The notes below the pieces were generated by a model. It did not search any database. It had not been told where the DNA came from and worked only from the letters and a program-made list of their open reading frames with translations. A program made the translations under genes and the position numbers. A DNA stretch of 64,000 bases. Source: a virus. Taxonomy: Duplodnaviria > Caudoviricetes. The DNA lies in IMG/VR virus record IMGVR_UViG_3300031912_000871, positions 1-64,000 of that record; one strand, given 5' to 3'. Positions 3,722-38,970 of this stretch are shown here, piece by piece. How positions within the stretch are numbered: position 1 is the stretch's first letter; each line of letters starts with the position of its first letter.

Positions 3722-3810
3722 GGATGGGTCTCCACTTCCGGGCCGGTCGCTCACCGGCCCACGGGTTGCAGGGTAGGCCACCGCGTCCAGCGCGGCGACC
3801 GGCCCGGCCG

Positions 3811-4437
3811 TCACCGCGTTGCGGCGGCCGGGGCGTAGCGGGCGCGGTACTCGCGCGGGTCGTACACGTCGTAGCCGAGGTCGACACCGCCGAACTCGTG
3901 CCGCCACCACAGCCCGTCAGCGAGGCGGGTAGCGCCGGTGCAGGTGACCGGCCGGGCGGGCCGGTAGTCGGCGAGCGCGGCGGCGACCAGCGACGTGTCC
4001 CGGTCGACGGTGACGCGGCGGGGCAGGTAGATGACGACGCCTTTGCCGTGCAGGAGGCCGGTGGGGCTGGTGGCGGCCTTCATGCCGAGACCGGCGGCCC
4101 ACACGATCGGGAACACGGCGGCCAGGGCGGCGCGTACGTCGGCGAGGGTCGCGGCGGGCGCGTAGAGCTTGTGCCCGGACCACGAGTCGGGCATGAGCAG
4201 CTGCTTCCACGCCGGGGTGGGCACGCGGCCGTCGTCGGCGATGCGGTGCCAGCGGGCGATCGCGTCGACCGCGTTGGTCGCGACGACGGCGCGTTCGAGG
4301 GCGGTGAGGTCGGCGGGGTCACCGAAGCGGGCAGGGCCGGCGATGTCGTCGGGCAGCTCGGTGCCCTGGATCTCCCACCAGTCGGGGGCGGCCGGCGCGG
4401 GGTGGATGGCTGGCGGGGCGACGGTCGTGGTGGTCAC
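3811..4437 (-). CDS. Standalone LanL/OspF-like phosphothreonine-lyase-fold protein (putative)
   Basis: GHKLYAP...MKAAT...GKGVVIYLP resembles the GxKxH..K..GKxxTxY lyase signature. Confidence 0.5.
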   Translation of the reverse strand: MTTTTVAPPAIHPAPAAPDWWEIQGTELPDDIAGPARFGDPADLTALERAVVATNAVDAIARWHRIADDGRVPTPAWKQLLMPDSWSGHKLYAPAATLADVRAALAAVFPIVWAAGLGMKAATSPTGLLHGKGVVIYLPRRVTVDRDTSLVAAALADYRPARPVTCTGATRLADGLWWRHEFGGVDLGYDVYDPREYRARYAPAAATR

Positions 4438-4482
4438 GGGGGTCTCCATCCTGCGGGTCGCTCGCCCGCTGGCCGGGGTGGA

Positions 4483-4623
4483 TCAGATCAGGTGGAGCAC
4501 GTTAAGGACGACGGACGGTGTGGCGGCGATGAACGCCTTCACCCGGTCCGGGCCGATCGCGGCCATCAGGACAGCGGCGGCGCCGAACGTGGCGGCGAGG
4601 GTGGCGTAGAAGCTGCGCGGCAT
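4483..4623 (-). CDS. Small membrane protein (46 aa)
   Basis: Strong SD, hydrophobic sequence, own promoter and hairpin. Confidence 0.65.
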   Translation of the reverse strand: MPRSFYATLAATFGAAAVLMAAIGPDRVKAFIAATPSVVLNVLHLI

Positions 4624-4681
4624 GGGGGTCCTCCGGTCTCTGGCGGGTCGCTCACCCGCACACCCCAAAGTGTAGCGCAGG

Positions 4682-5692
4682 TTAGGCGCTCCGCATAGCA
4701 AGCTCGGCGTCCAACTCGTCCACCAGCTGCTGCGCGGAAAGGTCAACCCGCAGTCTGTGGCCGATCCGGCCCTCCAGCGCGGCCACTTCGCGGGCCTTCG
4801 CCGGCCACAGCCGTGTGGCCTTGCGGAGGTCGCACGGCGAGGCGAGCACGCAGAACGCGCAGGACGCCCGGGTAAGGCCGTGGTCGTACACCGGGTGGTA
4901 CGGCACCCCGGACGCCTTGATCCGGTCCCACACCTGCTCGTCGGTCCAGGAGTGGATCGGCAGCCACCGCCACACGTGCCGGGTCGTCAGCGACGTGGCT
5001 CCGTGGTCCAACTCGAACGGCTTCAGCTTCTGCCGGCCGCAGGACTCGGCGCCGCGCATGCCCATGACGTTGAGGACCCTGACCGGCCGGCCGAGCGACT
5101 TTGGGCCTCCCAGCTCGTCCACCAGCTTGGTGATGAGTGCACGCACGGGCGCTCGCTTCTGGTCGGACGTGCAGTACCTGGCGGCCGAGGAGGGGAACAT
5201 GCCGCGCTCCTCGATCTGCTCCAGCAGGCCCTGCCGCTTGCCGTCCTTGGTGCGGCGGCTGACGACGATGAACCGGACGCCGTACGCCGCAGCGTGCCGG
5301 CCAGCCAGGTCGGCGGTCCCCTTCCAGTCCTTGGCCAGGGGGATGGTCTCGTCCCACTCGCTGTCGCGGAGGTCTGCGTGCACGGCCACCACGCGGTCGA
5401 GGATGCCGAGTCGGCGCGCCTCCGTGGCCACCACGTCGAGGATGGCCTGGGAGTCCTTCCCGCCGCTGATGTTGACGATGATCCAGTCGAACCAGGCGAG
5501 GTCGTCCGCGAGTTGTGGGGGCAGCGGCAGCGCTTCGAGCGCGACGCGTCGCAGGATCGCCCGGATGTGCGCCTTGGTGAGGTGCGGGGCGTAGCTGGCC
5601 CAGTCGTCGTTCGTCAGGGCTGGCGGGATGTCCGCCAGGCGCTTGGTGGTGCAGCAGGGCCGGTCGCAGCCGTCAACGGTGGCGCGGGCCAT
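4682..5692 (-). CDS. PAPS-reductase (DndC-like PP-loop) family protein
   Basis: SGGKDS PP-loop, RYCTSDQKRAP, GMRGAES, WLPIHSW, RASCAFC. Confidence 0.9.
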   Translation of the reverse strand: MARATVDGCDRPCCTTKRLADIPPALTNDDWASYAPHLTKAHIRAILRRVALEALPLPPQLADDLAWFDWIIVNISGGKDSQAILDVVATEARRLGILDRVVAVHADLRDSEWDETIPLAKDWKGTADLAGRHAAAYGVRFIVVSRRTKDGKRQGLLEQIEERGMFPSSAARYCTSDQKRAPVRALITKLVDELGGPKSLGRPVRVLNVMGMRGAESCGRQKLKPFELDHGATSLTTRHVWRWLPIHSWTDEQVWDRIKASGVPYHPVYDHGLTRASCAFCVLASPCDLRKATRLWPAKAREVAALEGRIGHRLRVDLSAQQLVDELDAELAMRSA

Positions 5693-5775
5693 TGGGTCTC
5701 CGATCGTCGTGCGGATCGCTCATCCGCAGGGGTATGACGATGGCCGGGCCGCGCAGGGCGGCCCGGCCGGGGTGG

Positions 5776-6147
5776 TCAGGGGCAGTCGCAGTCGCCGACG
5801 GGCAGGTCCCGGCAGGTCGGGCAGAGAGGCTCGACGGTGTACGCGCCGGGCCGGTTGGTGGCGTCGGCGTTGTCGGCGGCGGCCAGCTCGGCGAGGGTCG
5901 GGTCGTCGTGGGTCTCGACCAGGCGGTCGCCGTCGAACACGCCGTACTGCTGGGTGGGCTCGGCGAGGCTGATGGGCCTGCGGATCAGGGTGAGGGCGGT
6001 GCGGCGGGCCTCGCGGGTGAGGATGTCCCGGGCCAGGGTGCGCAGCTGCCGCTCGGCGATGATGCGACGCGCGGCGGCTTCGTCGGCCTCGGCGACCGGG
6101 CGGGGGGCGGGCCGGTCGGCGGCGGGCTGGATGCGGGTCTGCTGCAC
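5776..6147 (-). CDS. Hypothetical protein
   Basis: SD, hairpin and promoter; C-terminal CPTC..CDC. Confidence 0.7.
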   Translation of the reverse strand: MQQTRIQPAADRPAPRPVAEADEAAARRIIAERQLRTLARDILTREARRTALTLIRRPISLAEPTQQYGVFDGDRLVETHDDPTLAELAAADNADATNRPGAYTVEPLCPTCRDLPVGDCDCP

Positions 6148-6220
6148 GGGGTCTCCCTCGTTCGGGAGCGGGTCGCTCACCCGCTCACACCCCAAAGTGT
6201 AGCACAGTTTAGAGGTTGGG

Positions 6221-6499
6221 TCAGTGCCAGCCGATCAGGTGATTCCACTGGCCGCCGTACCACAGCGCGGCGTCGCGCTGCTCCGGCGTGATGGTCTTCT
6301 GGTTGGACTCGGGCGCCAGGGTGAACCGCTTGTCGACCTTCGCGGCGTGACGGATCGCGGCGTGGATCTCCTCGATGGTGAGGTCGAGGGCCTCGGCGAC
6401 GGTCCGGATGTTCATCCAGGAGCCGGCGCCGTACTGGTGGGCATGCAGGTCGTATGCGCGGCGGATCTGGCTGATCGCCCACTCGGCGGTGCGCTCCAT
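6221..6499 (-). CDS. Small winged-HTH-like protein
   Basis: WMNIRTVAEALDLTIEEIHAAI...PESNQK; own promoter. Confidence 0.7.
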   Translation of the reverse strand: MERTAEWAISQIRRAYDLHAHQYGAGSWMNIRTVAEALDLTIEEIHAAIRHAAKVDKRFTLAPESNQKTITPEQRDAALWYGGQWNHLIGWH

Positions 6500-6565
6500 G
6501 ATGGCCTCCGTTCGTTCCGGCGGGTCGCCCACCCACCTACACCCCGGAGTGTAGCAAACATTAAC

Positions 6566-6907
6566 TCACGGGGGGAAGCCCCCGACGCGATGCCCGCGCA
6601 CGTACTCGGCAGCCTGGGCGGCGGTCGCGTCGCCGACCGCGTTGCCCTGGCCGACGAGGGCACCACCCGGCCGGAAACCCGGCCGGGGCTCCCCCGACGG
6701 CGCGTCGGCCGTCCACCACGCCCGCAGCCGGCGCCCGGAGCGGGTCGCGGCGGACAGCTCCACCACCTCACGGTGGACGTCGCCGCACCGCAGCGGCCCG
6801 GTCGTGGTGATCCGGCAGTCCCAGCCGGCGTCGTGCACGGCGTCGACCAGCAGGTGGTAGGAGCGGGGCAGCCTCGGCGCGATCTCAGGCTTGTCGAGTA
6901 CGCCCAT
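6566..6907 (-). CDS. Hypothetical protein
   Basis: GAGGAGG SD, high GC3. Confidence 0.6.
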   Translation of the reverse strand: MGVLDKPEIAPRLPRSYHLLVDAVHDAGWDCRITTTGPLRCGDVHREVVELSAATRSGRRLRAWWTADAPSGEPRPGFRPGGALVGQGNAVGDATAAQAAEYVRGHRVGGFPP

Positions 6908-7025
6908 CACTGCCTCCTCGCCGTCCGTTGCGACACGGTTACCGAATGGAGAAAGGGTGAAGGATAAGACAGGTTTCCGTCTGCCGCACTGCGCGGGCCG
7001 GGGCACTCACAACCCCGGCCCCGCG

Positions 7026-7487
7026 TCAGCTGCTCTGCCAGTAGGACGGCAGAGCACCCTCGGGCTGCGGGAACTCGCGTACGCGCCGCTGCGCCTCCAG
7101 CATCACCGCCACCGCGTCGGTGTACTGGCGCATCTGCTTCAGCTGCTTCGGGTCGCGCAGCGCGGCCACGGCGGCCTCGGCGGTGGGGAACTGGGCCTCC
7201 AGCCAGCCGCCGGTGTCGCTGACGCTCCAGGCGCTGCCGTCCTCGCGGGCGCGGCTGACGACGCCGTACGCCTGGCTGCTCCACTCGCTGCGCCCGGGGA
7301 TCTCGATGACGGCGAACCGCAGCTGCTGAACCCCGTCGCCGTCGGTGCGGTAGTCGCAGGCGGCCGCGGTGTCGCCGATGGTGCTCAGGGTGTAGCCGGA
7401 GCTGGCGGCGATGTCCCGGAGGGTGGTCGAGATCAGCTGGCGGTCGGGCGTGACGGCGGGCTTCTTGCGCTGGACGGTCTTCGGCAA
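7026..7487 (-). CDS. Hypothetical protein
   Basis: GGAGACCCC SD plus hairpin. Confidence 0.7.
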   Translation of the reverse strand: MPKTVQRKKPAVTPDRQLISTTLRDIAASSGYTLSTIGDTAAACDYRTDGDGVQQLRFAVIEIPGRSEWSSQAYGVVSRAREDGSAWSVSDTGGWLEAQFPTAEAAVAALRDPKQLKQMRQYTDAVAVMLEAQRRVREFPQPEGALPSYWQSS

Positions 7488-7534
7488 CGGGGTCTCCTGT
7501 GGGCCGTGGGCGGGTCGCTCTCCCGCCCGGGTGG

Positions 7535-7747
7535 TCAGGCTGTGGTGGCGGCGTGCGCGCCGGCGTCGATCGCGGCGGTGCTGATGCCGCGCTCGACGGC
7601 ACCGAACAGCACGTCGGCCTGGCCGAGGTGCGCGGCGAGGGTGGCCGGGTCGGTGGTGGCGGCGTCCTGGTCGCTCCAGGTGGTGCCGGGGATCCGGGCG
7701 ACGAGGACGATGGTCACGGTGTCGGAGCGGTCAGGCAGGGCCTCCAC
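7535..7747 (-). CDS. Hypothetical protein
   Basis: GGAGG SD, high GC3. Confidence 0.6.
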   Translation of the reverse strand: MEALPDRSDTVTIVLVARIPGTTWSDQDAATTDPATLAAHLGQADVLFGAVERGISTAAIDAGAHAATTA

Positions 7748-7800
7748 GGGTGCCTCCGGTGGGTGGGAGGGCCGACGCTGGGTCGGCCCTCCGGGGGTGG

Positions 7801-7992
7801 TCAGAACGGGATGTCGTCGGTGGTGTTCTTGCTGGCGAGGATGCCGAAGGGGTCGGCCATCGCGGCCTGGTAGCCGACGCTGGTCCGGGCCAGCTTCTCC
7901 CGCACCTGCTGTGCGCTCTCGGGGGTTGCGAGGGGCTCGGGGGTGCGTACGGTGAAGGTGTAGGTCCGGACGATGCGGGCGGCCTCGTTCAT
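7801..7992 (-). CDS. Hypothetical protein ending in DDIPF
   Basis: SD, hairpin and promoter; acidic-aromatic C-terminal tail like SSB. Confidence 0.65.
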   Translation of the reverse strand: MNEAARIVRTYTFTVRTPEPLATPESAQQVREKLARTSVGYQAAMADPFGILASKNTTDDIPF

Positions 7993-8400
7993 CGGGGGTC
8001 TCCTGTTCTGCGCGGGTCGCTCACCCGCACACCCCGAAGCGTAGCATAGTTTCGCCAGGTCTGCGCGACAGTCCCGTTCACGGGATGTAAGTGCATAACG
8101 AGCGAGGTGGCGAGAGGGCACGCGCATAAGTCCCGGTTTTCGCGATCTGTCGAAACGGGGCCATCCGTCGCACAGGCCATCATCGACCGTCGCTTGGTTG
8201 CACCCCCACGCATGACGCGCCTTCACTGCTCCTAGCTGGGAACATCCGCCATCCCCAACGCCCGCCGGGAGCAACCGCTCCCGATTGGACAGCCTGGGGG
8301 CCGGAGTACCCACGAGGTGCGGGGAGGCGATACCGTCTCTCCTCGCACCTCCTCCGGCTGCGCCTGCCGGAATCCGACGCACGCGCGGAAGGAGGTGATG

Positions 8401-8526
8401 ATGGTGGACGCGAGTCAGGACGGTCATGCCCCCGACCGGAAGACAGCCCGGTTGTACGCCTGGGCGGCTCTTCTCGGTGCGGTGGCCACACTGGTGAGCG
8501 CCCTGGCTGGATGCTTCCCCACCTGA
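8401..8526 (+). CDS. 41-aa single-TM peptide with LAGC lipobox; candidate type I toxin or lipopeptide
   Basis: AAGGAGGTG SD; MVDASQDGHAPDRKTARLYAWAALLGAVATLVSALAGCFPT. Confidence 0.6.
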   Translation: MVDASQDGHAPDRKTARLYAWAALLGAVATLVSALAGCFPT

Positions 8527-8548
8527 CGGGCTAGCCCGTCAGGTGGGG
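8517..8548. terminator. 32-bp perfect palindrome / terminator
   Basis: CCCCACCTGACGGGCT-AGCCCGTCAGGTGGGG. Confidence 0.7.
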
Positions 8549-8762
8549 TGCACCGGCCGGACCGGCCGCATAAGCGTTCGGGTCGTGATGGCGGCCGGTC
8601 CCCCTCAGCTGGACCGCGAGAAGCTGCCCAGGGTGACGTGGCGACTCTAGTAGGAACGCCTCTGCTTGGGTACACGCATTCCGTCACACCGCAATTCGGA
8701 CTGGCCCCGCGCCACTGGCCATTCATCTGATCGGTCAACGAATCTCCCTGCTCAGACGACCC

Positions 8763-8802
8763 GCCATGAGCACATGACGCCATGAGCGCATGACGTCATG
8801 TC
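8763..8802. repeat. 8-bp-periodic CATGA array (copy 2 of a putative centromere)
   Basis: gccatgag cacatgac gccatgag cgcatgac gtcatgtc. Confidence 0.6.
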
Positions 8803-8842
8803 GACGCTCTCAGATGGCGAACGGCCCTCTATCGCGAGTTAG

Positions 8843-8873
8843 CAGATGCCGATAGGCTGCCAATCGGCATCTG
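8843..8873. promoter_or_regulatory. Operator-like inverted repeat upstream of an HTH gene
   Basis: CAGATGCCGAT-N9-ATCGGCATCTG. Confidence 0.55.
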
Positions 8874-8897
8874 TGCCGCGCAGCGATCGGAGACCCC

Positions 8898-9362
8898 ATG
8901 ACCACCGACACCATCAACACCGACCAGCTCAGCGACGCCCTCACCCGCCTCGACCGGGCCCGGAACCTCCGCGACGCCCTCGCCCCCCTCGCCCGCCTCA
9001 TCACCGAGGCCGACGAGGAGGCCCGCGCCGCCGCCATCGCCGCCGCCCAAGCCGGCCTGTCCGAGCGGGCCATCGCCGCGAAGTTCGGCATCGCGCAGCC
9101 CACCGCGCACTCCTGGCTGGACGGCCGCACCGCCGCGCCGATGCCCGCCCCCACCATCGGCGAGCGGGCGTGGCTCCTCCACCAGACCGTCCGCGCGGTG
9201 GAGACGATCGTCCACCGGCTCGACGGCGAGGATCTGCCCTCACCGCCCTACGGTGGGGTTGTCTCCGCCCGTTCCCGCCTGACAGAGGCGCGCAAGGCGC
9301 TCAACACGGGCGCGTGGGCGCTCGGTGAGGCCGGCAGCATCCTGGAGCAAGCCGGGAAGTAG
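8898..9362 (+). CDS. HTH DNA-binding protein
   Basis: GLSERAIAAKFGIAQPTAHSWL helix-turn-helix; GGAGACCCC SD. Confidence 0.8.
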   Translation: MTTDTINTDQLSDALTRLDRARNLRDALAPLARLITEADEEARAAAIAAAQAGLSERAIAAKFGIAQPTAHSWLDGRTAAPMPAPTIGERAWLLHQTVRAVETIVHRLDGEDLPSPPYGGVVSARSRLTEARKALNTGAWALGEAGSILEQAGK

Positions 9363-9364
9363 AC

Positions 9365-9416
9365 CGTACGACGGAAGGGCCCGCAGGGACGTCCCTGCGG
9401 GCCCTTCCGTCGTACG
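9365..9416. terminator. 52-bp perfect palindrome between convergent genes
   Basis: CGTACGACGGAAGGGCCCGCAGGGAC mirrored with no loop. Confidence 0.7.
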
Positions 9417-9418
9417 CG

Positions 9419-9650
9419 CTACAGGCCGGGCTGGCCCTGCGCCTCCAGGCCCGGGAACGCGGCCGCAATGGCCGTCCAGAACGCCGTAGCCGCCTCGCTG
9501 GCGTCTGCGGGCAGCTCCCCCGGCCGGAGGGGTGCACTGCGGCGAGAAGCCGCCCGTCAGGGCTGCTGACCCGCAGCGAGGGTCCGCCCGGCACCGCGAG
9601 CTCCAGCAGCGGGCCCGGCGGGTCTGGACCGCATCGTCGGGCAGGCTCAC
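9419..9650 (-). pseudogene. Small phage gene with two apparent 1-nt losses in C/G runs
   Basis: Three frames join into VSLPDDAVQ / PLLELAVPGGPSLRVSSPDGRLLAAVHPSG / ELPADASEAATAFWTAIAAAFPG; may be sequencing error. Confidence 0.5.
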
Positions 9651-10207
9651 GGGGTCTCCTTGGGGGGTCGCTGGTGCAGGTGGATGAACGGGCCGCGCAC
9701 CCCTGCGCTGAAGTGCGCGGCGGCTTCGAGGGCGGCCTTCACCCGCCGGGCCGGGGGCTGCCCGACGGTGGCGTGGAGAGCGCCGAGGGCGATGTCCTGG
9801 CCGCAGCCGACGGCGGCGTACCCGTCGGCGGGCTCGCCGACCTGGAAGTCGCCGTACACCTGGAACAGGCGGCCAGCGGTGCCGACGAGGAACGTGCCGC
9901 CGAGTTCCCGGCCGGAGTCGAGGGTGAGCCAGCCGCCGTCGACGAGGGTCTTCCGTACGGCGTCGATGAACGTGGTGGCCATGTGCCGGTCCAGCGCGGC
10001 CGGGGCGGTGGGGAGCTTCGGTGGGGTGAGGGCGTAGCGGAGCAGCTGCCCCATGCGGAAGCTGTCGGTGAAGCCCATCAGGTACGGGCCGTTGCGGAAC
10101 ACCTTCGCGTCGGCGCGGACGCTGCTGGACCAGCCGGGGCCGACTCCGGCGGAGTCCCCGCCGATGTGGACGGCGCCGCGGTGGACGAGGCCGACGATCG
10201 CGGTCAC
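9647..10207 (-). CDS. Ntn-hydrolase (HslV/proteasome-beta-like) peptidase
   Basis: N-terminal (M)TAIVG, GGDSAG, KVF, AVGCGQDIALGAL. Confidence 0.75.
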   Translation of the reverse strand: MTAIVGLVHRGAVHIGGDSAGVGPGWSSSVRADAKVFRNGPYLMGFTDSFRMGQLLRYALTPPKLPTAPAALDRHMATTFIDAVRKTLVDGGWLTLDSGRELGGTFLVGTAGRLFQVYGDFQVGEPADGYAAVGCGQDIALGALHATVGQPPARRVKAALEAAAHFSAGVRGPFIHLHQRPPKETP

Positions 10208-10446
10208 GCGAGCATCCGGCCGGTGCGCGGGTCGTACGGGACGGGCACGATCACCGGCGGGGGCGGCGCCGGGTGGATGTGCAGTTGCATTGCCGGCTGG
10301 GTGAGGTTGGCGAGGGGGCCGCGGAGCCGGTCGATCGCGGTCAGCGCGGCCTGCACGGTATCGGCCGGGTCGCCGCTGTCGGGAACGGTGATGCCCCGGT
10401 CGGCGAGACCCACGCGGAGGCGCTCCAGCGCGCTGGTGGCGGTCAT
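10204..10446 (-). CDS. Hypothetical protein
   Basis: Translationally coupled on both sides. Confidence 0.6.
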   Translation of the reverse strand: MTATSALERLRVGLADRGITVPDSGDPADTVQAALTAIDRLRGPLANLTQPAMQLHIHPAPPPPVIVPVPYDPRTGRMLA

Positions 10447-15058: not shown

Positions 15059-15414
15059 GGGGTCTCCTTCACGCGGGCCGGTCGCTCACCGGCACGCAGG
15101 TCGATTCTACCGGCGGGAACCGGCACGAAGGCGACACCGACGGCCGCCAGGTCGGCGCGCCGACGCGGCGAAATCACGTCGCCGAGGACCGCCGCCGCCG
15201 GCTCGTCGTACAACGCGACCGCGGCGGCCAGCACACCGAGCGCCAGATGCCGCACCTGCGCCGCGTTGACGGCATCCAGCCGGTACACGGCGGCACCCCG
15301 ATGCCAGGCCACCAGCGGCCCGCCCACATGCACGGCGAGCGCATCCCACACCGCCAGCTCCCGGGCAGCGGTCTCCTCGGCCTCGTGGAGCAACTGCAAC
15401 TCGTAGGCGTCCAT
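15052..15414 (-). CDS. Hypothetical protein
   Basis: MDAYELQ..., coupled to the terS stop. Confidence 0.65.
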   Translation of the reverse strand: MDAYELQLLHEAEETAARELAVWDALAVHVGGPLVAWHRGAAVYRLDAVNAAQVRHLALGVLAAAVALYDEPAAAVLGDVISPRRRADLAAVGVAFVPVPAGRIDLRAGERPARVKETPW

Positions 15415-17292: not shown

Positions 17293-17357
17293 GGGGGGTC
17301 TCCCGGGGGGCGGGACCGGCCCGGGTCGCTCACCCGGGCCGGTCTGTGTGGATGGGA

Positions 17358-18245: not shown

Positions 18246-18309
18246 TCGGGGTCTCCTTCCTGACGCCACCGGTGCGGCCCGGTCGCTCACCGGGCCGCAC
18301 GGGGAAGGG

Positions 18310-19308: not shown

Positions 19309-19448
19309 GGGGGTCTCCGTTTCCGGCGGGTCGCTCACCCGCACACCCATACTGTAGCAGTCCTTAACCGCCGTGGGAAGGTGCCGCGCTGGACACGTCA
19401 CTACCGGCAGCGCGTCCTAGGACAGCAGGTCGGCCGCTCCCCCGAGCG

Positions 19449-20420: not shown

Positions 20421-20583
20421 CGGGGGTCTCCTCCCGTTGGGGCGGGTCGCTCACCCGCCTACACCCCAAACTGTAGCGGCGATTAACTGGGTGCGCAAGA
20501 GGGGCGCGGCCGAATCTGGCCGCGCCCCTCTTGGGCCGATGCGGGCTACAGCCGCACCTGGAGGTAGACGGCGGACCCCTTGG

Positions 20584-23922: not shown

Positions 23923-23949
23923 AGGGGTCTCCTCAGTGTCGGGGCTCGC

Positions 23950-24168
23950 TCAGCCGCTGATCTTCTGGCGCACGGAGTTGTCGGAGGCGTAGTCGAGGTG
24001 GCGGGCCAGCGCGCGCTTCGGCACGCGGTGAACGCGCACCAGGCGGAGCAGACGCGCGCCGAGGGTGCCGCGTAGCTCGGCGACGCGCGCCTCCAGCTGC
24101 TCGATCTCGTCCTTCGCGGCGCGTGCCGCGTCGAGGTCGGCGCGCGCGTCGGGGGGCAGGGTCTCCAT
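23950..24168 (-). CDS. Small coiled-coil/HTH protein
   Basis: VPKRALARHLDYASDNSVRQKI. Confidence 0.6.
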   Translation of the reverse strand: METLPPDARADLDAARAAKDEIEQLEARVAELRGTLGARLLRLVRVHRVPKRALARHLDYASDNSVRQKISG

Positions 24169-29084: not shown

Positions 29085-29093
29085 GGGGGGTCC

Positions 29094-29596: not shown

Positions 29597-29599
29597 GGG

Positions 29600-31264: not shown

Positions 31265-31476
31265 CAGTCGTGGTAGCCGGACCGGATCGCGGCCACGAAG
31301 GTGTCCCACTCGCGCGGGTTGTAGAACTGGGTGCCGCCGTCGGGGTTCTTGCTGTCGCGGATGGCGCGCCATCCGGTCGGGTGCTTCGCCACGGTGACGC
31401 AGCTGCCCTCGTTGCTGCTGGTGTCGAACGGGCCGAACTCGTTCAGCGGCGGCGGGGTCTTGTCCGTGCGGTCCAT
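31264..31476 (-). CDS. DUF397 protein
   Basis: SSNEGSCVTVA...AIRDSKNPDGG...WDTFVAAIRSG. Confidence 0.9.
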   Translation of the reverse strand: MDRTDKTPPPLNEFGPFDTSSNEGSCVTVAKHPTGWRAIRDSKNPDGGTQFYNPREWDTFVAAIRSGYHD

Positions 31477-31513
31477 CGAATCTCCTCTACGGTCGACGCC
31501 CCGCAGCGTGGTG

Positions 31514-32368: not shown

Positions 32369-32424
32369 GGGTTCTCCTCGGGTTGAGCTACCGGCAGGGT
32401 ATGCGGGTTTATGCGGGACAGCAA

Positions 32425-32456
32425 GGAGGGCGCCAGCACTTCTGCTGGCGCCCTCC
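32425..32456 (-). terminator. Terminator-like hairpin
   Basis: GGAGGGCGCCAGCA/TGCTGGCGCCCTCC, followed by UUGCU on the minus strand. Confidence 0.7.
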
Positions 32457-32551
32457 GCGCGTTTCAGCGGCCAGGCACCGGTTCGCTCACCCGGTCCCGT
32501 GGCCGTCCTCACGTTGTACGGCATCCGGCCGGCTACCGTCTTGGGGCAAGA

Positions 32552-32806
32552 TCATCGGAGCCTCCGTCGGGCTTGCTGGCTGCTCTGCCGCATCGCCGCG
32601 TCGAGGGCGTTGTGGTCGACCATCAGGATCTGGCCGGGCAGACACGCCGGCGACTCGTGCACGTCGAACTGATCGCCCATGTCGTGCTCGGTGAGCAGCT
32701 GCCGTACCTCCGTCACCCGGCCGGGCTCGCAGTAGACGGTCCTCCGCTCGTCCTCGATGACCTGCGCCCAGAACCGCACCTCGGCCTCAGCGTCGCCGCC
32801 GGTCAC
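32552..32806 (-). CDS. Hypothetical phage protein
   Basis: Coupled to the DnaC-like gene. Confidence 0.7.
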   Translation of the reverse strand: MTGGDAEAEVRFWAQVIEDERRTVYCEPGRVTEVRQLLTEHDMGDQFDVHESPACLPGQILMVDHNALDAAMRQSSQQARRRLR

Positions 32807-33699
32807 CAGTCGAGGCCCGTCAGCTGGCGGCGGTCCGGACCGAGGAACGTGAAGGCGGTGGCCCGGTCCTGGAGCCGGGAGAACAGCCGGTCGCCGAGCA
32901 TGGTCTCCAGGCCCGCGACCCGGGTGCCGTCGCGGCGCTCAACGTCGCGGGCCCGCAGGTTCGTGGTCACGATCGTGCGGAGCCGCGCGTTGAGCCGGTA
33001 CTCGATCAGCTCCAGCAGCTCCCGCCGTACGAACTCCCGCGCCTCGATGTCCATCTCCGCGCCGAGGTCATCGAGGATGAGCAGCTCAGCGGTGCGCGCC
33101 CGGTCGCGGATCTCCCACACCGGGTGCTTCGAGCCCTCCGGGCGCAGCTCGGCGAGGTAGCCGTGCATCGTCCAGGACCGTACGAGGAGCTGCTTGGTGA
33201 CGACCTCACCGGACCGCAGCCGAGTCGCGGCGCCGCGCCGGGCGGCTTCGGCGGCCGTCGCGTATGCGGCCTGGGTCTTCCCGGAGCCGGTCTTCCCGGC
33301 GAAGATCGCCGTCCGTGCGTCCGGGTCGGCCAGCCACGCGGCGATCGCGTCCGGGTGCTGGTCCGTGTCGAGGGACGCGAGTCCCACGTCGGCGGCCACC
33401 CGGTCGTCGGGCAGGCACGCCTGCAACGCCCGTTCCCGCATCGCGGATTGGTGGCGTAGCACCAGCTCGCTGGCCGGAACGTCGTCGTCGGTTCCCGTTA
33501 CGGGGGCCGGGAGACCCGCCTCGCGGGCCTGCCGCGCGGCCTCGGCACGTTCCGCTGCGAGGGCGCCCACCTGGTCGCGTAGGTGCTCCGGGAGCGCGCC
33601 GAGGAGACCCTTCGCGAGCCAGCTGGCCTGCTGGGTGTCGGGGCGGCGCTGCCGGGCGATGGCCTTGCCGACCGAACCCGTCACTTCCTGCGTGGTCAC
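32803..33699 (-). CDS. DnaC/IstB-like helicase-loader ATPase
   Basis: GKTGSGKT Walker A, LLILDDLG Walker B, TIVTTNL, DRLFSRL. Confidence 0.9.
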   Translation of the reverse strand: MTTQEVTGSVGKAIARQRRPDTQQASWLAKGLLGALPEHLRDQVGALAAERAEAARQAREAGLPAPVTGTDDDVPASELVLRHQSAMRERALQACLPDDRVAADVGLASLDTDQHPDAIAAWLADPDARTAIFAGKTGSGKTQAAYATAAEAARRGAATRLRSGEVVTKQLLVRSWTMHGYLAELRPEGSKHPVWEIRDRARTAELLILDDLGAEMDIEAREFVRRELLELIEYRLNARLRTIVTTNLRARDVERRDGTRVAGLETMLGDRLFSRLQDRATAFTFLGPDRRQLTGLDW

Positions 33700-34826
33700 C
33701 AGGCACCTCCCGCAGCAGCACCCGCGCCGACCGGGCGGACGTCCTCAGCCCAGGCGTCGTTGACCTGCATGACGCCGGGGGAGGGCCGACCGGCCACACC
33801 GGCCGGTGGGCGGGGTGCCCGTCCACGGATCCGAACGAGCGCCCGCTCCATCTGGGCCTTCGACGGGATGCCCTCGCCGAGGCCGTTGAGGGCGCGCTTG
33901 ATCTCGTCCTCGGTGTAGTCGGCATCGAGGAACGGGCGGATCAGCGAGGCGAGCTGGTGCAGGGGCCGGCCGCCGACGACGGGCACGCCGAGGTTGGCCC
34001 GGTGGTCGATCCACTTCCGGGCGATGCCCATAGCGACGTCGTGGTTTGTCGGTTGCCGCTTCGGCTCGGCTGGGGTCCGGGGCGGCGGCACGGCGCCGTC
34101 GAGGGTCGGCTGAACGGCAGCAGACCGCTCGTCGCGCCGATCATCCGCAGGATGATCGGAATCTGTGTAACCCCTCTGGTGTAACTCCTCTTGTATAGGC
34201 GCCGGGTTTCCGGACTCTGCCGCTCCGGGCCCCGGGTTTCCGGACCCCGGGTTCCCGGAGCCCGGAAACCCGTCCCCGGGGGTGTCGGAATCCTCGGAGC
34301 CCGAAAACCCGTCTCCGGGGTCTTCCTCCTCGGCGGTGCTGTCCGCGTCCGGCCGCGGCGGCGGGGGGAACTCGTCGTCTAGCAGCGTGCCGTCGGGGTA
34401 CTTCACCTTGAACGAGCCGTCCGGCTGCTCCACCAGAGGGACAGCCTTCCCGCCGAAGAACTCGGCCTGCGCCGCCCAGGACGCCACCGGCGTCTCCGAC
34501 ACAGCCGTGCCCATGACGAAGGTGCGGTCGAGCATCCGCCGCTTCTCCAGCCGGTAGTAGCCGGCCAGGGCCAGCTCGCGGAGCGCCGTACGGACGGCCT
34601 CCCTGCCCTCGCGGGCGGCTTCACGGCCGCGGAGGGTCTTGCCCTTGCCCTCGTTCGCGATCTGGATGGAGTTGACGTCCCAGCCCTCGGGCTTGTTCAG
34701 GAGCCAGGTGAGCACGCCCAGACTGCGGAACGGGACGGTGAAGTCGTCCACCGTGCTCGACGGCACCTGGACGAAGGGGTCGCGGCGACGCTTGCGCAGG
34801 CCACCGCGCGGGTTGTCGGAGGTCAT
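33696..34826 (-). CDS. Phage replication initiator protein
   Basis: N-terminal wHTH (FVQVP...LGVLTWLL...ALRELALAGYYR), central GNP repeats, upstream of the DnaC-like gene. Confidence 0.8.
   Translation of the reverse strand: MTSDNPRGGLRKRRRDPFVQVPSSTVDDFTVPFRSLGVLTWLLNKPEGWDVNSIQIANEGKGKTLRGREAAREGREAVRTALRELALAGYYRLEKRRMLDRTFVMGTAVSETPVASWAAQAEFFGGKAVPLVEQPDGSFKVKYPDGTLLDDEFPPPPRPDADSTAEEEDPGDGFSGSEDSDTPGDGFPGSGNPGSGNPGPGAAESGNPAPIQEELHQRGYTDSDHPADDRRDERSAAVQPTLDGAVPPPRTPAEPKRQPTNHDVAMGIARKWIDHRANLGVPVVGGRPLHQLASLIRPFLDADYTEDEIKRALNGLGEGIPSKAQMERALVRIRGRAPRPPAGVAGRPSPGVMQVNDAWAEDVRPVGAGAAAGGAW
34160..34313. promoter_or_regulatory. Putative replication origin inside the initiator gene
   Basis: CCGGGTT(T/C)CCGGA x3 (34202, 34232, 34247) plus two inverted copies (34260, 34299), next to an AT-rich patch at 34160-34200. 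Confidence 0.6.
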
Positions 34827-34866
34827 GCCACACCGCCAGGGATCCGGGGGGAACTCATGAGCGGGG

Positions 34867-34896
34867 TGTCTACCGGCACCGCGACGTTAACGTCCT
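34867..34896 (-). promoter_or_regulatory. Late-type motif upstream of the replication genes
   Basis: AGGACGTTAAC-N13-TAGACA. Confidence 0.5.
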
Positions 34897-35078
34897 CGCC
34901 GATGTGACGAACCGCGGGACGGAGGTGTGTGCGAGTGGGCGACTCGTATGCCAAAATGGGCACACGAGTACGACCCAAGGGGTCACGCATGTGGCTCCTC
35001 GGTGATGTTGCGAGGGCCGCTTCTGGGTGTGGGATCCGGGAGGCGGCCTTTGCGGCTTTTTGGGTTGTGCTCTCGTCT

Positions 35079-35300
35079 CTAGGCCGCTGCCAGCTCCAAG
35101 GGGAGCGTCGGCGCGGGCGCTGCTGCCGGGTACGGCTCGGGGAGACCCGAGGCGCGTGCCGCGAGGTTGGCGACGTAATCGGAGAACGCGATGCCGAGTT
35201 CCTTGGCCTCGCGCTCGTACCGGTCGAGGTGCTCGTCCGGGAAGCGCACGGGGCGGCGCTTGCCGCCCTTCGGCGCTCGCCCAGGTTTGGTGCCAGCCAT
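35079..35300 (-). CDS. Ribbon-helix-helix DNA-binding protein
   Basis: RRPVRFPDEHLDRYEREAKELGIAFSDYVANL. Confidence 0.75.
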   Translation of the reverse strand: MAGTKPGRAPKGGKRRPVRFPDEHLDRYEREAKELGIAFSDYVANLAARASGLPEPYPAAAPAPTLPLELAAA

Positions 35301-35388
35301 GCCACGGTTCTACTCCATTGCTGATTCAGATTCACGCACCCGGTCGGCGTGTCGTGATCCGAGGAGCCGGCGCGTGCCGGCTCACCCG

Positions 35389-35880
35389 TCACGCCGCCGC
35401 TTCGACCTGCATGCCAGCCTCGCGAGCCCGCCGCCGGGCCCGCTGCACTGACCGTTCGCTGACGCCCGCGACCCGCGCGATGCTGGCCGCGCTCGCATCA
35501 CCGGCGGTCAGCTCCAGCACCTGCCCGTCCAGGCCGGACACCGGGCCCGGCCTGCGCTTCGGTAGCTGCACCTCCACGTTCGTTCCGGGCACCCGGATCG
35601 ACGTCAGGCGGAACCGCTGCTTCTGGCTGAGCCCGCCCCAGACGCCGATCCGCTCGTCGGTGATCACGGCGTAGCTGAGGCACATCTCCTTGACCGGGCA
35701 GCCGTCACACAGCTTCGCTGCGGCCCGCCACGTCTGGCCCTTGCCCTCGGGGAAGAAGGCTTCCGGGTCGGTCTGGGCGCACACCGCTTCCTTGACCCAG
35801 CGGCCAGGGAGCCAGCCGGCCATGTTGGCCCACACCAGTACCCCGGCGCTGATCCACGGCCGCAGATCCTTGACCCTCAC
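35389..35880 (-). CDS. whiB: WhiB family transcription factor with a C-terminal HTH
   Basis: C..TDPEAFFP...AKLCDGCPV..C...GVWGG. Confidence 0.9.
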   Translation of the reverse strand: MRVKDLRPWISAGVLVWANMAGWLPGRWVKEAVCAQTDPEAFFPEGKGQTWRAAAKLCDGCPVKEMCLSYAVITDERIGVWGGLSQKQRFRLTSIRVPGTNVEVQLPKRRPGPVSGLDGQVLELTAGDASAASIARVAGVSERSVQRARRRAREAGMQVEAAA

Positions 35881-36038
35881 CGCTGCACCTCCGCTCCACT
35901 GTGCGGCAGGACGGTCGACGTGCGGCGATGGCCGGAAGGTCCAGGGCTGATCGGCCGACTGGTGGCTACGATGGCCAGCGAGAGATCCGTCAGGATCGGG
36001 TCAGGAACCTGACCCGGGAGAGGTTGAAGTAGAACCAC
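35877..36038 (-). CDS. Small hypothetical protein
   Basis: GGAGACCCC SD plus hairpin; coupled to whiB. Confidence 0.5.
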   Translation of the reverse strand: MVLLQPLPGQVPDPILTDLSLAIVATSRPISPGPSGHRRTSTVLPHSGAEVQR

Positions 36039-36243
36039 AGGGGTCTCCGTTCGTGCGGCGGGTCGCTCACCCGCTGGTCTGCCCCCGACGTCGAGGGCTG
36101 GCCACCCAGTCAAGTAACTGAGTGGTGTGTATGTGTGACAGTACAAACGGTGCAACGTGACTCGCAAGGGGATGCGCGAGCCGGCACAGCCGCATCATGA
36201 TCGGGTAGCCGGTTGGTACCCAAGCCCCGCGGAAGGCGGGCCC

Positions 36244-36645
36244 GTGACACATCAGCCCCAGATCAGCGACGGCGCCCGGCCTCGCCTCGTCATGTCGCAG
36301 GCGCTCCAGCTGACCGCCGAACTGGCGACCAGCCTCGTCCCGACGTACGCCGACCAGCACGCCGAGTTCGGCGAGCACCTCCAAGCGGCCCGCCGGCTGC
36401 GGCTCTGCGCCGAGCGGGTCATCGACGCGGCGATCGCCGTCGAGGCCGAGGCAGGGGCAACCGCTGCGGAGATCGCCGCCTGGCTCGCGCTGCCCGTAGA
36501 GCAGGTCGAGATGCGCCTGGCGAACCAACGTGCCCGCGCCGCAGCGATCGACCCGCCCAGCCTCGCCGAGGAGCTGGACGCCTGGTACGCCCGGGTGAGC
36601 GGACCAGACGCCCCCTCCAACGCCGTCTCAGCCGGTCTGGCCTAA
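36244..36645 (+). CDS. Putative regulator (HTH-like), divergent from the whiB-rep operon
   Basis: GATAAEIAAWLALPVEQVEMR; AT-rich control region at 36100-36160. Confidence 0.6.
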   Translation: MTHQPQISDGARPRLVMSQALQLTAELATSLVPTYADQHAEFGEHLQAARRLRLCAERVIDAAIAVEAEAGATAAEIAAWLALPVEQVEMRLANQRARAAAIDPPSLAEELDAWYARVSGPDAPSNAVSAGLA

Positions 36646-37610
36646 CCGCGCGGCTGCGCCCCGGCCGGCCAGCCAGCCTCGTCGTACGCCGCATCCGGGT
36701 TGCCCACCGTCTGGCCGGGCTCGACGTCCGCCTCGCTGTCACCAGCGTGCTCGGTCACCTCGTCCACCGGCGCGTCCGGCGAGTCGTTGTGCCGTACCCC
36801 GCCGTCAGCCGCGATGGCCTGCCGAGCGGTCGCCGACAGCGGCAACCACTTGCCCAGCTGCTTCCCGACCGTCTTGTGCGCCATCGCCTCGAAGCCATCA
36901 CCAGCCACACCGCGGTCATCGAACCAGGGGCCCGACTTGATCCGGACGTAGCGGGCCCGGTGCGCCTTCATCGCATCCCGGTGCACCGGCCGGGTCAGCT
37001 GGTAGCCGCCCCCGTTGAGCAGCGCCCGAGCGTAGTAGAGCACCGGCGCACCCGGCTTGTCGTCCAGCAGCCACGGCTCGTGGACCAGCTCGTCACGGTC
37101 CTCGTGCCAGCTCAACCGGAAGGACGGCAGCTCCTTCTCGTACACCGTCCGGGCGACGATGCCACGCACCAGGCCCGACTGCATGGCCAGCTTGACCAGG
37201 CCCTTGTAGCCGAGCACGAACGTCGCCTCCCGGCGGCCCCGGTCGTTGTTCCAGAACGGCAGCACGTACGCCTGCCCGGTCGCCCCGCCGACTCGCAGGC
37301 CCAGCTGCGCGCAGGTCATCACCGCCCCGACGATCGTGCGGGGGTCGCACTCGTCCAGCCCCTTGACCGTCGACAGCGCAGTGACGGTATCGGTGATCAG
37401 CTGCACGCCGGTCGGCCCGCCGTCCGGAGCCGCCCGGTTGAACAGCTCCTCCCGCTGCCTCAGCGCCTCGACGGCACTGCCGTACCCGGACACCTGGACC
37501 GCGGCACGCTGGTCCGGCTGCGCGGGCATGACGGTGCCCTCGACGGCCGGGCCAGGCTGTCCGGCGGTCTGTCCGGCCCGGGCATCTTTCACTCGGTCTC
37601 GCAAGCTCAT
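36642..37610 (-). CDS. recT: RecT family recombinase
   Basis: CDPRTIVGAVMTCAQLGL...GQAYVLPF...LGYKGLVKLAMQSG...MAHKTV. Confidence 0.92.
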   Translation of the reverse strand: MSLRDRVKDARAGQTAGQPGPAVEGTVMPAQPDQRAAVQVSGYGSAVEALRQREELFNRAAPDGGPTGVQLITDTVTALSTVKGLDECDPRTIVGAVMTCAQLGLRVGGATGQAYVLPFWNNDRGRREATFVLGYKGLVKLAMQSGLVRGIVARTVYEKELPSFRLSWHEDRDELVHEPWLLDDKPGAPVLYYARALLNGGGYQLTRPVHRDAMKAHRARYVRIKSGPWFDDRGVAGDGFEAMAHKTVGKQLGKWLPLSATARQAIAADGGVRHNDSPDAPVDEVTEHAGDSEADVEPGQTVGNPDAAYDEAGWPAGAQPRG

Positions 37611-38623
37611 CTCTTCACCTCTCGCAACTCGACGTACTCGCAGGGGTTGACGGTGTAACCGGCGCGGGAACGGCGGGCGAGCCGGACCGCACGGCGCCCG
37701 CCGAGCCGTCCGTACTCGGCGCCCGCCTCCACCAGCTGCGCCTTGATCTCGTTCTCCACCTCGTCCAGCTCGACCTTCAGCGCCTTGCGCCGGGCCTTCA
37801 GATCCCGGCGGCGGGCGAGCAGGTCCGCGGTGTGCTCGGCCAGGTCGACTTCCTTGGCCTCGGTGATGCTCGCCAGCGCGGCGACGGCGAGCGCCTCCGA
37901 CGTGGCCGCCCGCGCGTCGGCGGGCGGAGCGGTGTCCGGCCACAGGTGGTCGCGGCAGAACTGGGCGGCGGCCTCGCGCAGCTCGCCGATCAGGTCGTCG
38001 TCGCGGGCGACGTACTCCACGACCGGTTCGTCGCAGCCGTCGACCACGGCCACGACGTACCAGCCGAGCGCCCCGGTCACTCCCATGCACCACTGCGCCT
38101 GGGCCTGCGGATAGTCCGGCACGGAGCCACCCAGCCACAGCTTCACGTCCGGGGAATGGTCGTCCACCGTCTTGATCTCGACCCCGGCCGGCTCGCCGAC
38201 GACGAACCGGTCCGGGTTGCACAGCATGTAACGGGCGAAGCCGTCCACCTCGAACAGCGGAACCGGATGCCGCCAGGTGCCGGTCACCCCGAGCTGCTTG
38301 CCGTGCAGCTCGGCGAACCAATCGGCTGCGACCGGCTCCAGCCGGTGCCCCCACGCCAGCCGTCCCTTCGCCGGTGTCGGCGGCAGCCGTCCGGACTTGT
38401 CCAGCCACAGCTTGTACGGCGTCGACCAGGGGGACAGGCTCAGCGCCGCGAGAGCATCACTCCCGCCGAGGCCCGTCAAGCGGATGGCGTGCCAGTCCGG
38501 CATCGGCGCGCCGTACGGCAGCACCTCCACGGCAGGGCCAGATGCCCACCACGGTCTGGAAGGCGGCGCGGGATCGGCCGGCGGTCCGGCACCCACACCA
38601 TGATCATGGATGACAGCAGTCAT
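37607..38623 (-). CDS. YqaJ-like viral recombinase exonuclease
   Basis: WHAIRLTGLGGSD...WGHRLEP...CNPDR..VEIKT...YPQAQAQWCM. Confidence 0.92.
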   Translation of the reverse strand: MTAVIHDHGVGAGPPADPAPPSRPWWASGPAVEVLPYGAPMPDWHAIRLTGLGGSDALAALSLSPWSTPYKLWLDKSGRLPPTPAKGRLAWGHRLEPVAADWFAELHGKQLGVTGTWRHPVPLFEVDGFARYMLCNPDRFVVGEPAGVEIKTVDDHSPDVKLWLGGSVPDYPQAQAQWCMGVTGALGWYVVAVVDGCDEPVVEYVARDDDLIGELREAAAQFCRDHLWPDTAPPADARAATSEALAVAALASITEAKEVDLAEHTADLLARRRDLKARRKALKVELDEVENEIKAQLVEAGAEYGRLGGRRAVRLARRSRAGYTVNPCEYVELREVKR

Positions 38624-38970
38624 CGTCAGGGGTCTCCTCGTCCGGCCCGTCGCTCACGGGCCAAGCGGAACGCGGCCAGGACCATAACGTCCTGACACCC
38701 CAAAGTGTAGCAGACATGGAGCAGGGCCGCGCACCATGTCCGCGGCCCTGCAAAACGGAAGGCCAACCCCGCGAGCTGAGATCGTCATCGCGGGAGCGAA
38801 CCGCTCAGACCTCGCACGCCGTCACGGTGGAGACCCCGTTGCCCGAAGGGCTCAAAGGTGCCGCAGACGGACGTGTTTCCCACGCCAGTTGGCCTTTCCA
38901 CCACCCATGCTACGGCACCCCCACCGACACAACTACGCTGATCGGACCTGCGACTTGCCGACGAAAGGAC

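Follow-up and report, generated by a model that had tools for sequence, protein, structure and literature searches.

GAGCG-loop hairpins beside ribosome-binding sites in an actinophage group: a candidate RNA element in the leaders of non-virion genes

The stretch of DNA analysed here (64,000 nt, hereafter the window) is the first 64 kb of the IMG/VR virus record IMGVR_UViG_3300031912_000871 (Caudoviricetes; 87,321 bp, 72% GC), and it carries a family of small hairpins just upstream of the Shine-Dalgarno (SD) sequences of non-virion genes, in which one GAGCG pentaloop is kept constant on stems that change. Both the pairing and the loop sequence are under selection, and the family occurs in two diverged lineages of one phage group while it is absent from the host chromosome. 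Our reading, to which we give a probability of roughly 0.55, is that the leader hairpin beside the ribosome-binding site (RBS) serves as a shield of the 5' end and as an insulator of the RBS, and that its invariant loop docks one trans-acting reader.

Hairpins upstream of ribosome-binding sites

The original prediction, made from the letters of the window, had claimed 17 minus-strand hairpins of this type, and our direct scan recovers 16 clean copies and one degenerate copy (32471-32501), the stems and positions given earlier being correct. The whole genome holds 24 hairpins, eight of which lie outside the window at 68.8-83 kb. Their common form is an N-GAGCG-A loop, where N is mostly U, on a stem of 4-13 bp. 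The word TGAGCGA occurs 23 times on the minus strand versus 5 times on the plus strand, and in a scan of the genome hairpins of the form U-G(A/G)GCG-A with a stem of at least 4 bp occur 21 and 2 times respectively, while across 200 first-order Markov simulations the mean count is 1.1 and the highest is 5, against the 21 seen. In fact GAGCG is the commonest pentaloop on the minus strand, and once A or C is permitted before it, three further copies bring the genome to 24. Folded in isolation, the hairpins reach -10.7 to -31.6 kcal/mol (z -3.2 to -6.5), with the exception of the 4-bp copy at 23943-23955 (-5.7 kcal/mol, z -1.8). The loop G(A/G)GCG is constant as claimed, but the base before it is A or C in some copies rather than U, and the following A, which had been called invariant, is replaced by G in one orthologue, with C-G instead of U-A as the closing pair. 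The late structural operons, as predicted, are free of the hairpins, since no match of our covariance model to the virion genes (39-64 kb) exceeds 17 bits.

With regard to the gene start, each clean copy has its SD 2-10 nt past the stem, which replaces the earlier estimate of 5-15 nt, and its start codon 14-26 nt past the stem, and the SD is usually GGAGACCCC. On the upstream side, 11 of the 24 genomic copies, including six in the window, stand directly past a conserved TGCTACACTTTGGGGTGT box and two more follow it after a spacer; for the copy at 38655 the box precedes across 39 nt. In the six copies of the window (4653, 6178, 6530, 8022, 19336, 20452) the box reads TGCTACACT, and its role as a promoter is predicted; the original prediction had likewise put six copies right behind the early promoter. 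The stem starts 6-11 nt past the -10-like TACACT box in at least 11 of the 24 copies, and this box is mostly of the extended form TGnTACACT. Another 11 copies have no box, and several of them come directly after the stop codons of upstream genes.

Selection on the pairing and on the loop

The stems had been claimed to covary, and this is borne out both within the genome and between orthologous copies, which show compensatory changes; the covariation exceeds all shuffle and slide controls. For the covariation test, with an ungapped alignment of 41 copies and a helix of 13 pairs, the paired cells amount to 70.9% versus 59.5% in shuffles and the covariation score is 0.296 versus 0.116, a value that none of the 500 shuffles reaches, while registers shifted by 1-3 columns all score far lower. 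Changes on both sides are seen at four of the six inner pairs (8/24, 10/22, 11/21 and 12/20).

The orthologous copies come from C21 (NZ_JBEYIX010000021.1, 86,731 bp), a sister element which forms a separate contig in Micromonospora sp. NPDC006766, looks complete, and is syntenic with the virus at 73-87% nucleotide identity but circularly permuted. Between the two, compensatory sites are found at 17331, 5721, 8022 and 34937. For example, GACC...GGUC at 17331 becomes GGUC...GACC in C21; at 5721, GGAU/AUCC becomes GGGC/GCCC while the closing pair goes from U-A to C-G; and at 8022, UGUGCGGG/CCCGCGCA becomes UGUGAGGG/CCCUCACA.

When the copies of five elements are pooled (71 copies), 69 of them have the loop GAGCG and two have GGGCG. 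The inner five pairs of this set comprise 343 Watson-Crick pairs, 8 G.U, no A.C and 4 others, and the closing pair is U-A in 58 copies, C.A in 7, A.A in 5 and C-G in one. Since G.U is present without A.C, the pattern argues for a structure of the sense strand and not for a double-stranded palindrome or an antisense structure. Moreover, the plus-strand copies (34927-34951, 70287-70303, and several in the second lineage described below) are situated before or within plus-strand genes with their compensatory stems conserved, so the orientation tracks transcription rather than replication or a polarity centred on a dif site. Taken from sequence comparison, these observations support a hairpin that works as a folded nucleic acid of one specific strand, in the simplest case mRNA, and that is linked to the starts of translation; that it is RNA and not single-stranded DNA is what we infer from them.

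Distribution in the host, in relatives and in a second lineage

A pattern scan over 185,579 species genomes led to 73 stretches, among which C21 was the sole multi-copy contig with 12 matches; it carries 20 strict copies together with variants. In the 6.9-Mb Micromonospora genome, 19 of the 34 occurrences of GGTGAGCGACC are on the 86.7-kb contig of the element, which makes up 1.25% of the genome, and 22 of the 25 covariance-model matches (E<=1) are on it as well. The frequency in the host had been named as a point on which the finding could fall, and with matches so concentrated on the element contig it is not refuted. The 150 other genomes of the host family gave single matches in 10 only. 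By the capsid protein, the closest cultured relative of the virus is Streptomyces phage Gilgamesh (42% amino acid identity), and Streptomyces and Thermobispora plasmids of 125-145 kb are about as distant from the virus as Gilgamesh is; the covariance model stays at or below 23 bits in Gilgamesh and three related plasmids, and the hairpin family is absent from these Gilgamesh-type relatives. The restriction is therefore to the phage group itself, in which three metagenome contigs (k87-*) of 66-71% identity have the same cassette and also bear an AGAGCGA loop on a 13-bp stem whose sequence is unrelated.

A second lineage consists of IMG/VR UViG_3300031178_000002 (G152, 80.6 kb) and three near-identical contigs, whose core proteins are 35-65% identical to those of the window phage and in which a looser scan gives about 20 model matches. 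The cassette of G152 reads as a TGGTATCAT-like promoter, 5 nt, UGUGCGGG-(U/C)GAGCGA-CCCGCACA, and then the SD GGAGGGAG, so that the hairpin begins at the predicted +1, 5 nt past the -10 box, and adjoins the SD. As G152 differs in promoter and SD yet keeps the hairpin, the conserved unit is the hairpin and not the promoter or the RBS word.

Another metagenome contig, L129 (ERZ777003 NODE-3568, 14.8 kb), has two UGAGCGA hairpins on its minus strand (5540-5570 and 7962-7992), one of them with GGAGACC and ATG, and has only the SSB gene in common with the window phage (65% amino acid identity); it may represent a third lineage.

As for further searches, BLAST of the cassette against cultured phages gave nothing useful, and neither did a first strict pattern over viral contigs or a capsid-protein search for related loci. 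None of the 4227 covariance models of Rfam matches at the gathering score over 84 kb, and the segment 3600-8200 has no match even at E<=1. Our literature searches found no description of a GAGCG hairpin motif.

Proposed role and alternatives

On this basis we propose that the hairpins would be a sense-strand RNA family in the 5' leaders of non-virion genes, mostly ORFans. A message of this kind would begin with a paired or almost paired 5' end; the stem would shield this end against the 5'-end-dependent RNases E and J and would insulate the RBS against the upstream sequence; and the GAGCG pentaloop, usually closed by U-A, would dock a single trans-acting reader, through which about 25 messages would be jointly stabilised, translated or silenced. 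In this scheme the positions at which transcription starts and the protective effect are predictions, and so is the reader, both that it exists and what it is. Both RNase E and RNase J are present in actinobacteria. It is established that 5'-terminal pairing, and 5' stem-loops together with ribosome binding, stabilise bacterial mRNAs (Emory 1992, Bouvet and Belasco 1992, Hambraeus 2002, as listed in PMC3997798).

Several considerations favour this reading. Since the distance to the SD is fixed in boxed as well as box-less copies and in both lineages, the function would be tied to the RBS rather than to the polymerase. Protection alone would leave the identity of 69 of 71 loops amid drift unexplained, and therefore a docking role of the loop is favoured. 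Moreover, because the loop stays constant across lineages that have only 35-65% core identity and differ in promoters and SDs, the reader may be a host component as easily as a phage protein: it could be a new kind of phage RNA-binding protein, or else something conserved in the host, for instance the ribosome or an RNase.

A number of results weigh on the other side. The boxes before the hairpins are of the -10 type only, and a two-hexamer promoter scan found nothing. Folding in longer context loses the hairpin at times, and the probability of an unpaired loop is 0.25-0.5 in several leaders. A CGGG/CCCG core is common to 50 of the 71 copies, so that the covariation rests on a minority of them. 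A purely protective hairpin needs no fixed loop, and a fixed loop could equally reflect a cleavage site. As for the reader, a scan of about 90 proteins revealed no known RNA-binding domain, sigma factor or RNA polymerase, and in the DNA compared no candidate reader or small protein is common to both lineages; what the second lineage does have in common is virion proteins, terminase, HTH, ImmA-like, DUF6545, DUF5131, integrase, IPT/TIG and endolysin-like proteins, none of which is an obvious RNA binder. Accordingly the regulon that had been suggested before stands as to its folded, start-linked element of the sense strand, but its RNA-binding protein encoded by the element finds no counterpart among the known domains of these proteins.

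If the proposal is true, an RNA regulon acts at the RBS in bacteria that are not known to have Hfq, ProQ or CsrA. The classical global RNA chaperones are not known from actinobacteria, and very few sequence-specific RNA-protein control pairs have been described in them or their phages. A constant loop of 5 nt on changing stems, in about 25 messages and two diverged lineages, gives a handle for finding the reader. More boldly, GAGCG might serve a single actinophage group as its own RNA address label, by which one reader switches the translation or stability of the whole accessory set, a tentative extension which we hold at somewhat less than an even chance. The start-associated sequences of mycobacteriophages, which have long lacked an explanation, also gain a testable model from the family, and the unit of -10 box, 5' hairpin and RBS is a candidate portable part for expression or insulation in the engineering of Micromonospora and Streptomyces.

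Two alternatives, both of which we consider improbable, come next. In one, the hairpin is an entry or processing site of an endoribonuclease, where host RNase E or a phage nuclease cuts at the sole C of the loop (GAG|CG), so that polycistronic RNA is matured into cistrons headed by hairpins or accessory messages are led to decay. In mycobacteria, RNase E cleaves unpaired RNA on the 5' side of cytidines in the context RN|CNU (PMC10641625). The loop AG|CGA fits the RN|CN part but has A rather than U at position +3. The invariance of the loop and the 11 copies without a box, several of them right past upstream stop codons, are in line with processing, while the copies at a predicted 5' end require none, and cleavage in the loop would ruin a structure whose pairing is selected.

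The other is a purely structural leader, a cap-like stabiliser of the 5' end and insulator of the RBS with no reader, whose loop is kept for fast folding or nuclease resistance. It shares all the positional evidence with the docking proposal, and the search for a reader found none; but from one lineage to the other the loop is the same in 69 of 71 copies in spite of drifting stems, promoters and SDs, and GAGCG is not a known extra-stable loop. The known 5'-terminal stabilisers (ompA, papA and the B. subtilis aprE leader; references in PMC3997798) likewise combine a hairpin at or near the 5' end with a strong RBS nearby, which makes a shield against RNases E and J plausible. They are features of single genes, however, and are not known to require a loop sequence, unlike the fixed loop here, which is found on about 25 messages and also at internal positions. 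The proximity to the 5' end is in our case predicted, from a distance between -10 box and stem of 6-11 nt in the window phage and 5 nt in G152.

Antitermination at the level of the polymerase is less probable still. The boxB of the lambda and P22 nut sites, which is bound by N, is a short GC stem with a purine-rich pentaloop that begins with G and is closed by U-A, in early leaders. An N-type processive antiterminator, loaded on RNA polymerase at each leader through a boxB-like site, would accord with our hairpins in shape, that is, a short GC stem topped by a pentaloop with a U-A closing pair, downstream of early promoters, and with the GC-rich terminator-like hairpins between some genes, e.g. 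upstream of 5710-5728. Hence the analogy drawn earlier is apt as to shape, but it fails in copy number (24 versus 2, where one site per early operon, upstream of terminators, is expected), in position, in boxA and in loop type. The spacing of 0-10 nt to the SD in both lineages has no rationale in antitermination; the alignments conserve only the -10 box and the SD and no boxA-like element; and as the loop, GAGCG in 69 of 71 copies, has G for its last base, it cannot take up a GNRA-like fold with a 3' A. The protein-family scans gave no match to an arginine-rich N-like protein; Arg-rich N-termini are uninformative at 72% GC.

About equally improbable is a signal at the DNA level, such as an operator over the transcription start for the conserved ImmR-like HTH repressor, a hairpin-type promoter, or a replication or transfer signal in single-stranded DNA. 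The promoter-linked copies do share a palindrome TGTGCGGG-N7-CCCGCACA at +1 to +23, which is a typical operator position, an XRE-HTH and ImmA-like pair is kept in both lineages, and ParA and a Xer-type integrase are present. Against it stand the half-sites that vary with compensation around a fixed asymmetric centre, the 8 G.U versus 0 A.C pairs, and the 11 copies without a -10 box. The orientation tracks the genes with no switch of polarity near the dif-like site at 70.2 kb, which is not KOPS-like, and no phage RNA polymerase gene was found among the proteins scanned. An N4-type DNA hairpin promoter is likewise disfavoured, as neither an RNA polymerase nor a sigma family was found and the hairpin is tied to the SD and not to a distance from the start site.

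The least probable as a full explanation is a mobile cassette, a portable unit of promoter, hairpin and RBS which also acts as a recombination linker for the shuffling of ORFans: near-identical cassettes of about 44 nt stand before two unrelated 63-amino-acid open reading frames (8022 and 69071), the downstream genes are mostly ORFans, and 11 of 72 ends of the homology blocks between the virus and C21 lie within 60 bp of a cassette versus 2.4 expected at random positions, but with gene boundaries as the null, i.e. against other gene leaders, the recombination points suggested earlier are not significant (11/24 versus 13/48, p = 0.12), most cassettes are nearest to their syntenic orthologue and not to paralogues, and the invariance of the loop is left unexplained. 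Such mobility is compatible with a docking role and does not exclude it, and some shuffling of this kind is possible.

Several other candidates were tried and rejected. Pairing of the loop with 16S rRNA fails because the host 16S has neither CGCUC nor UCGCUC. For a small phage RNA directed against the loop, no conserved intergenic hairpin with UCGCUC was found except the antisense of the cassettes, and the candidate at 77212 (+) is in fact one more copy of the minus strand, its loop being AGAGCGA. Host-RNA mimicry was dropped in view of the single matches in 10 of 150 host-family genomes and no Rfam match, and concerted evolution of the loop in view of the syntenic orthologues. Elements like REP/RAYT or integron attC have the wrong position, ours being linked to the SD and oriented with the gene, and the wrong size; polar words like KOPS, Chi or the TRS of TraB need no hairpin, and no switch of polarity is seen near the dif-like site at 70.2 kb. 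Apart from this, at about 300-330 of the host 16S rRNA (L301) a helix-12-like CCGGCC-UGAGAGGGCGA-CCGG resembles the CCGG-UGAGCGA-CCGG copies of the phage, having the same stem and a loop that begins with UGAG and ends with GCGA, which may be coincidence.

Comparison with stem-loop cassettes and start-associated sequences of other phages

The family can be assigned to none of the closest described classes, whether boxB, the 5' stabilisers or the two classes compared here. The PeSL (promoter early stem-loop) units of the T4-type phages RB49 and phi1 (Arbiol et al. 2010, PMC2839356) are repeated by the dozen, each joining an early promoter of host type to a stem-loop and an SD, and like our hairpins they stand before ORFans in plastic non-virion regions and nearly never in virion modules. 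The same order of promoter, stem-loop and SD before ORFans is seen here, where the downstream genes have no Pfam or PHROG match and the promoter activity is predicted. However, the stem-loop of PeSL is situated upstream of the -35 and -10 boxes, between them or over them, or else directly ahead of the start site; it terminates or attenuates upstream transcription, and no conserved loop is described for it (PMC2839356). Our hairpin is found 6-11 nt downstream of the -10 box, has no U tract, has a loop that does not vary, and is present in front of some genes that have no promoter box; nor does recombination between cassettes have significant support here. A terminator or attenuator upstream of or within the promoter is thus not what is found.

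The start-associated sequences (SAS) of Cluster K mycobacteriophages, to which the original prediction had also pointed, are a fitting analogy for the GGAGACCCC RBS, but the hairpin differs from the extended form (ESAS). In both cases an extended RBS word private to actinophages precedes many non-structural genes, GGGATAGGAGCCC there and GGAGACCCC here; the consensus GGGATAGGAGCCC itself is not found at our start codons, GGAGACCCC being its analogue. About half of the SAS have an upstream inverted repeat, in a single orientation (PMC3203893). The ESAS are 17-bp imperfect repeats with conserved half-sites and a variable spacer of 4-13 bp, for which the authors saw little support as an mRNA hairpin (PMC3203893). 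Ours are unlike them in that the centre is fixed (5-7 nt) while the arms vary (4-13 bp) with compensated pairing, so conserved half-sites around a variable spacer are not seen. The function of SAS was still without a test in 2025 (PMC12699233).

GGAGACCCC is a private start-associated word that resembles the SAS of Cluster K: followed by a start codon, it has 21 of its 45 matches in the Micromonospora genome on the element contig. It also occurs before genes without a hairpin, e.g. at 7497, 9659, 12296, 18873, 24166 and 29866 of the window. The ACCCC of the word has no complementarity to the 3' tail of 16S rRNA; a GGGGUCU at 16S position 1278 is complementary to the word, probably by chance.

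Individual copies and neighbouring features

The copies of the window are listed in Table 1.

Table 1. Hairpins of the GAGCG family and related features in the window (covariance-model scores in bits; boxes are -10-like, with predicted promoter role)
Position	Strand	Feature	Leader context	Model score; orthologues
3739..3761	-	hairpin UGGGCCGG-UGAGCGA-CCGGCCCG	SD GGAGACCCA 5 nt past stem; ATG 3721, 171-amino-acid ORFan	37.1; C21 identical
4453..4469	-	hairpin GCGGG-CGAGCGA-CCCGC	C for U; then GGAGACCCC; GTG 4437	C21 has U
4643..4659	-	hairpin GCGGG-UGAGCGA-CCCGC	9 nt past -10-like box; ATG 4623 (46 amino acids)	40.7
4669..4676	-	GCTACACT box	-10-like hexamer TACACT without the TG of the extended form; putative promoter	
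5710..5728	-	hairpin UGCGGA-UGAGCGA-UCCGCA	no box; GC-rich hairpin upstream; ATG 5692, PAPS-reductase-like, 336 amino acids	C21 GGCGGG-C-GAGCG-G-CCCGCC, closing pair U-A to C-G
6166..6186	-	hairpin GAGCGGG-UGAGCGA-CCCGCUC	box 6196-6203 precedes; GTG 6147	
6519..6537	-	hairpin GGUGGG-UGGGCGA-CCCGCC	loop variant GGGCG, one U.G pair; box 6548-6555; ATG 6499	
7508..7528	-	hairpin GGGCGGG-AGAGCGA-CCCGCCC	then GGAGACCCC; TTG 7487	
8009..8031	-	hairpin UGUGCGGG-UGAGCGA-CCCGCGCA	6 nt past box 8038-8045, hence at the predicted 5' end; ATG 7992 (63 amino acids)	C21 with compensatory C-G to A-U change
15077..15093	-	hairpin GCCGG-UGAGCGA-CCGGC	within 3' end of upstream open reading frame; TAGAAT hexamer 10 nt upstream; GTG 15058	
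17314..17344	-	13-bp hairpin, -31.6 kcal/mol, z -6.5	directly past upstream stop codon; TTG 17292	C21 with two compensatory pairs, GACC/GGUC versus GGUC/GACC
18272..18300	-	12-bp hairpin	past upstream stop codon; ATG 18245	
19326..19342	-	hairpin GCGGG-UGAGCGA-CCCGC	box 19351-19358 (GCTACAGT) precedes; GTG 19308	
20441..20459	-	hairpin GGCGGG-UGAGCGA-CCCGCC	box 20470-20477; ATG 20420	41.6, top model match
23943..23955	-	short hairpin GGC-UGAGCGA-GCC	in or past upstream open reading frame; GTG 23922 (487 amino acids)	kept in C21
32471..32501	-	degenerate CCGGG-UGAGCGA-ACCGG, function doubtful	one G.A mismatch; next start codon about 100 nt away	21.3; sequence kept in C21
34927..34951	+	relative GUGUGCGAG-UGGGCGA-CUCGUAUGC	divergent intergenic region; ATG near 34990	arrangement kept in C21 with compensatory A-U to G-C change
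36058..36074	-	hairpin GCGGG-UGAGCGA-CCCGC	no box; GTG 36038	orthologues in C21 and metagenome contig L091
38642..38664	-	hairpin UUGGCCCG-UGAGCGA-CGGGCCGG	39 nt past box 38704-38711; ATG 38623, YqaJ-like exonuclease	

By our gene calls, which were made within this analysis from the GC content of third codon positions (GC3), the genes of the virus are nearly all on the minus strand. The virion genes are at 41-63 kb and include those for the portal, the capsid protein and a 1102-amino-acid protein of tape-measure size, while the non-virion part encodes ParA, an MFS transporter, YqaJ, RecT, SSB, WhiB, several HTH proteins, a Xer-type integrase and many ORFans. The presence of the sister element C21 on a contig of its own in Micromonospora supports a Micromonospora host as well as an extrachromosomal, plasmid-prophage state, i.e. 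the view of the virus as a Micromonospora phage-plasmid.

In most cassettes, in the virus as well as in C21, GCTACACT is preceded at a distance of 4-6 nt by a motif (G)TTAAT or CTAA, for instance at 4677-4690, 6204-6215, 6556-6567 and 20478-20490 of the window, and no -35 hexamer is seen. It may mark an activator- or repressor-dependent class of promoters, such a regulated class being suggested by the WhiB-family gene of the element.

On the plus strand of genome positions 63773-66079, of which 63773-64000 belong to the window, there are genes for an XRE-type HTH protein (140 amino acids), an ImmA/IrrE-like M78 peptidase (174 amino acids) and a DUF6545 protein (423 amino acids). This cluster adjoins a terminase-like gene, its products are 31-41% identical to their counterparts in the second lineage, and it is likely an immunity module.

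Two divergent regions of the window have further plus-strand hairpins. At 34927-35000 a second hairpin reuses the 3' arm of the UGGGCGA hairpin, so that the two folds are mutually exclusive, and the pair could be a leader switch for the plus-strand gene in this divergent control region. At 38790-38810, before a plus-strand gene that starts near 38716 or 38971, a small hairpin GCGG-GAGCGAA-CCGC lies within a 22-mer that is kept in C21, and it may be a shifted variant of the GAGCG loop family.

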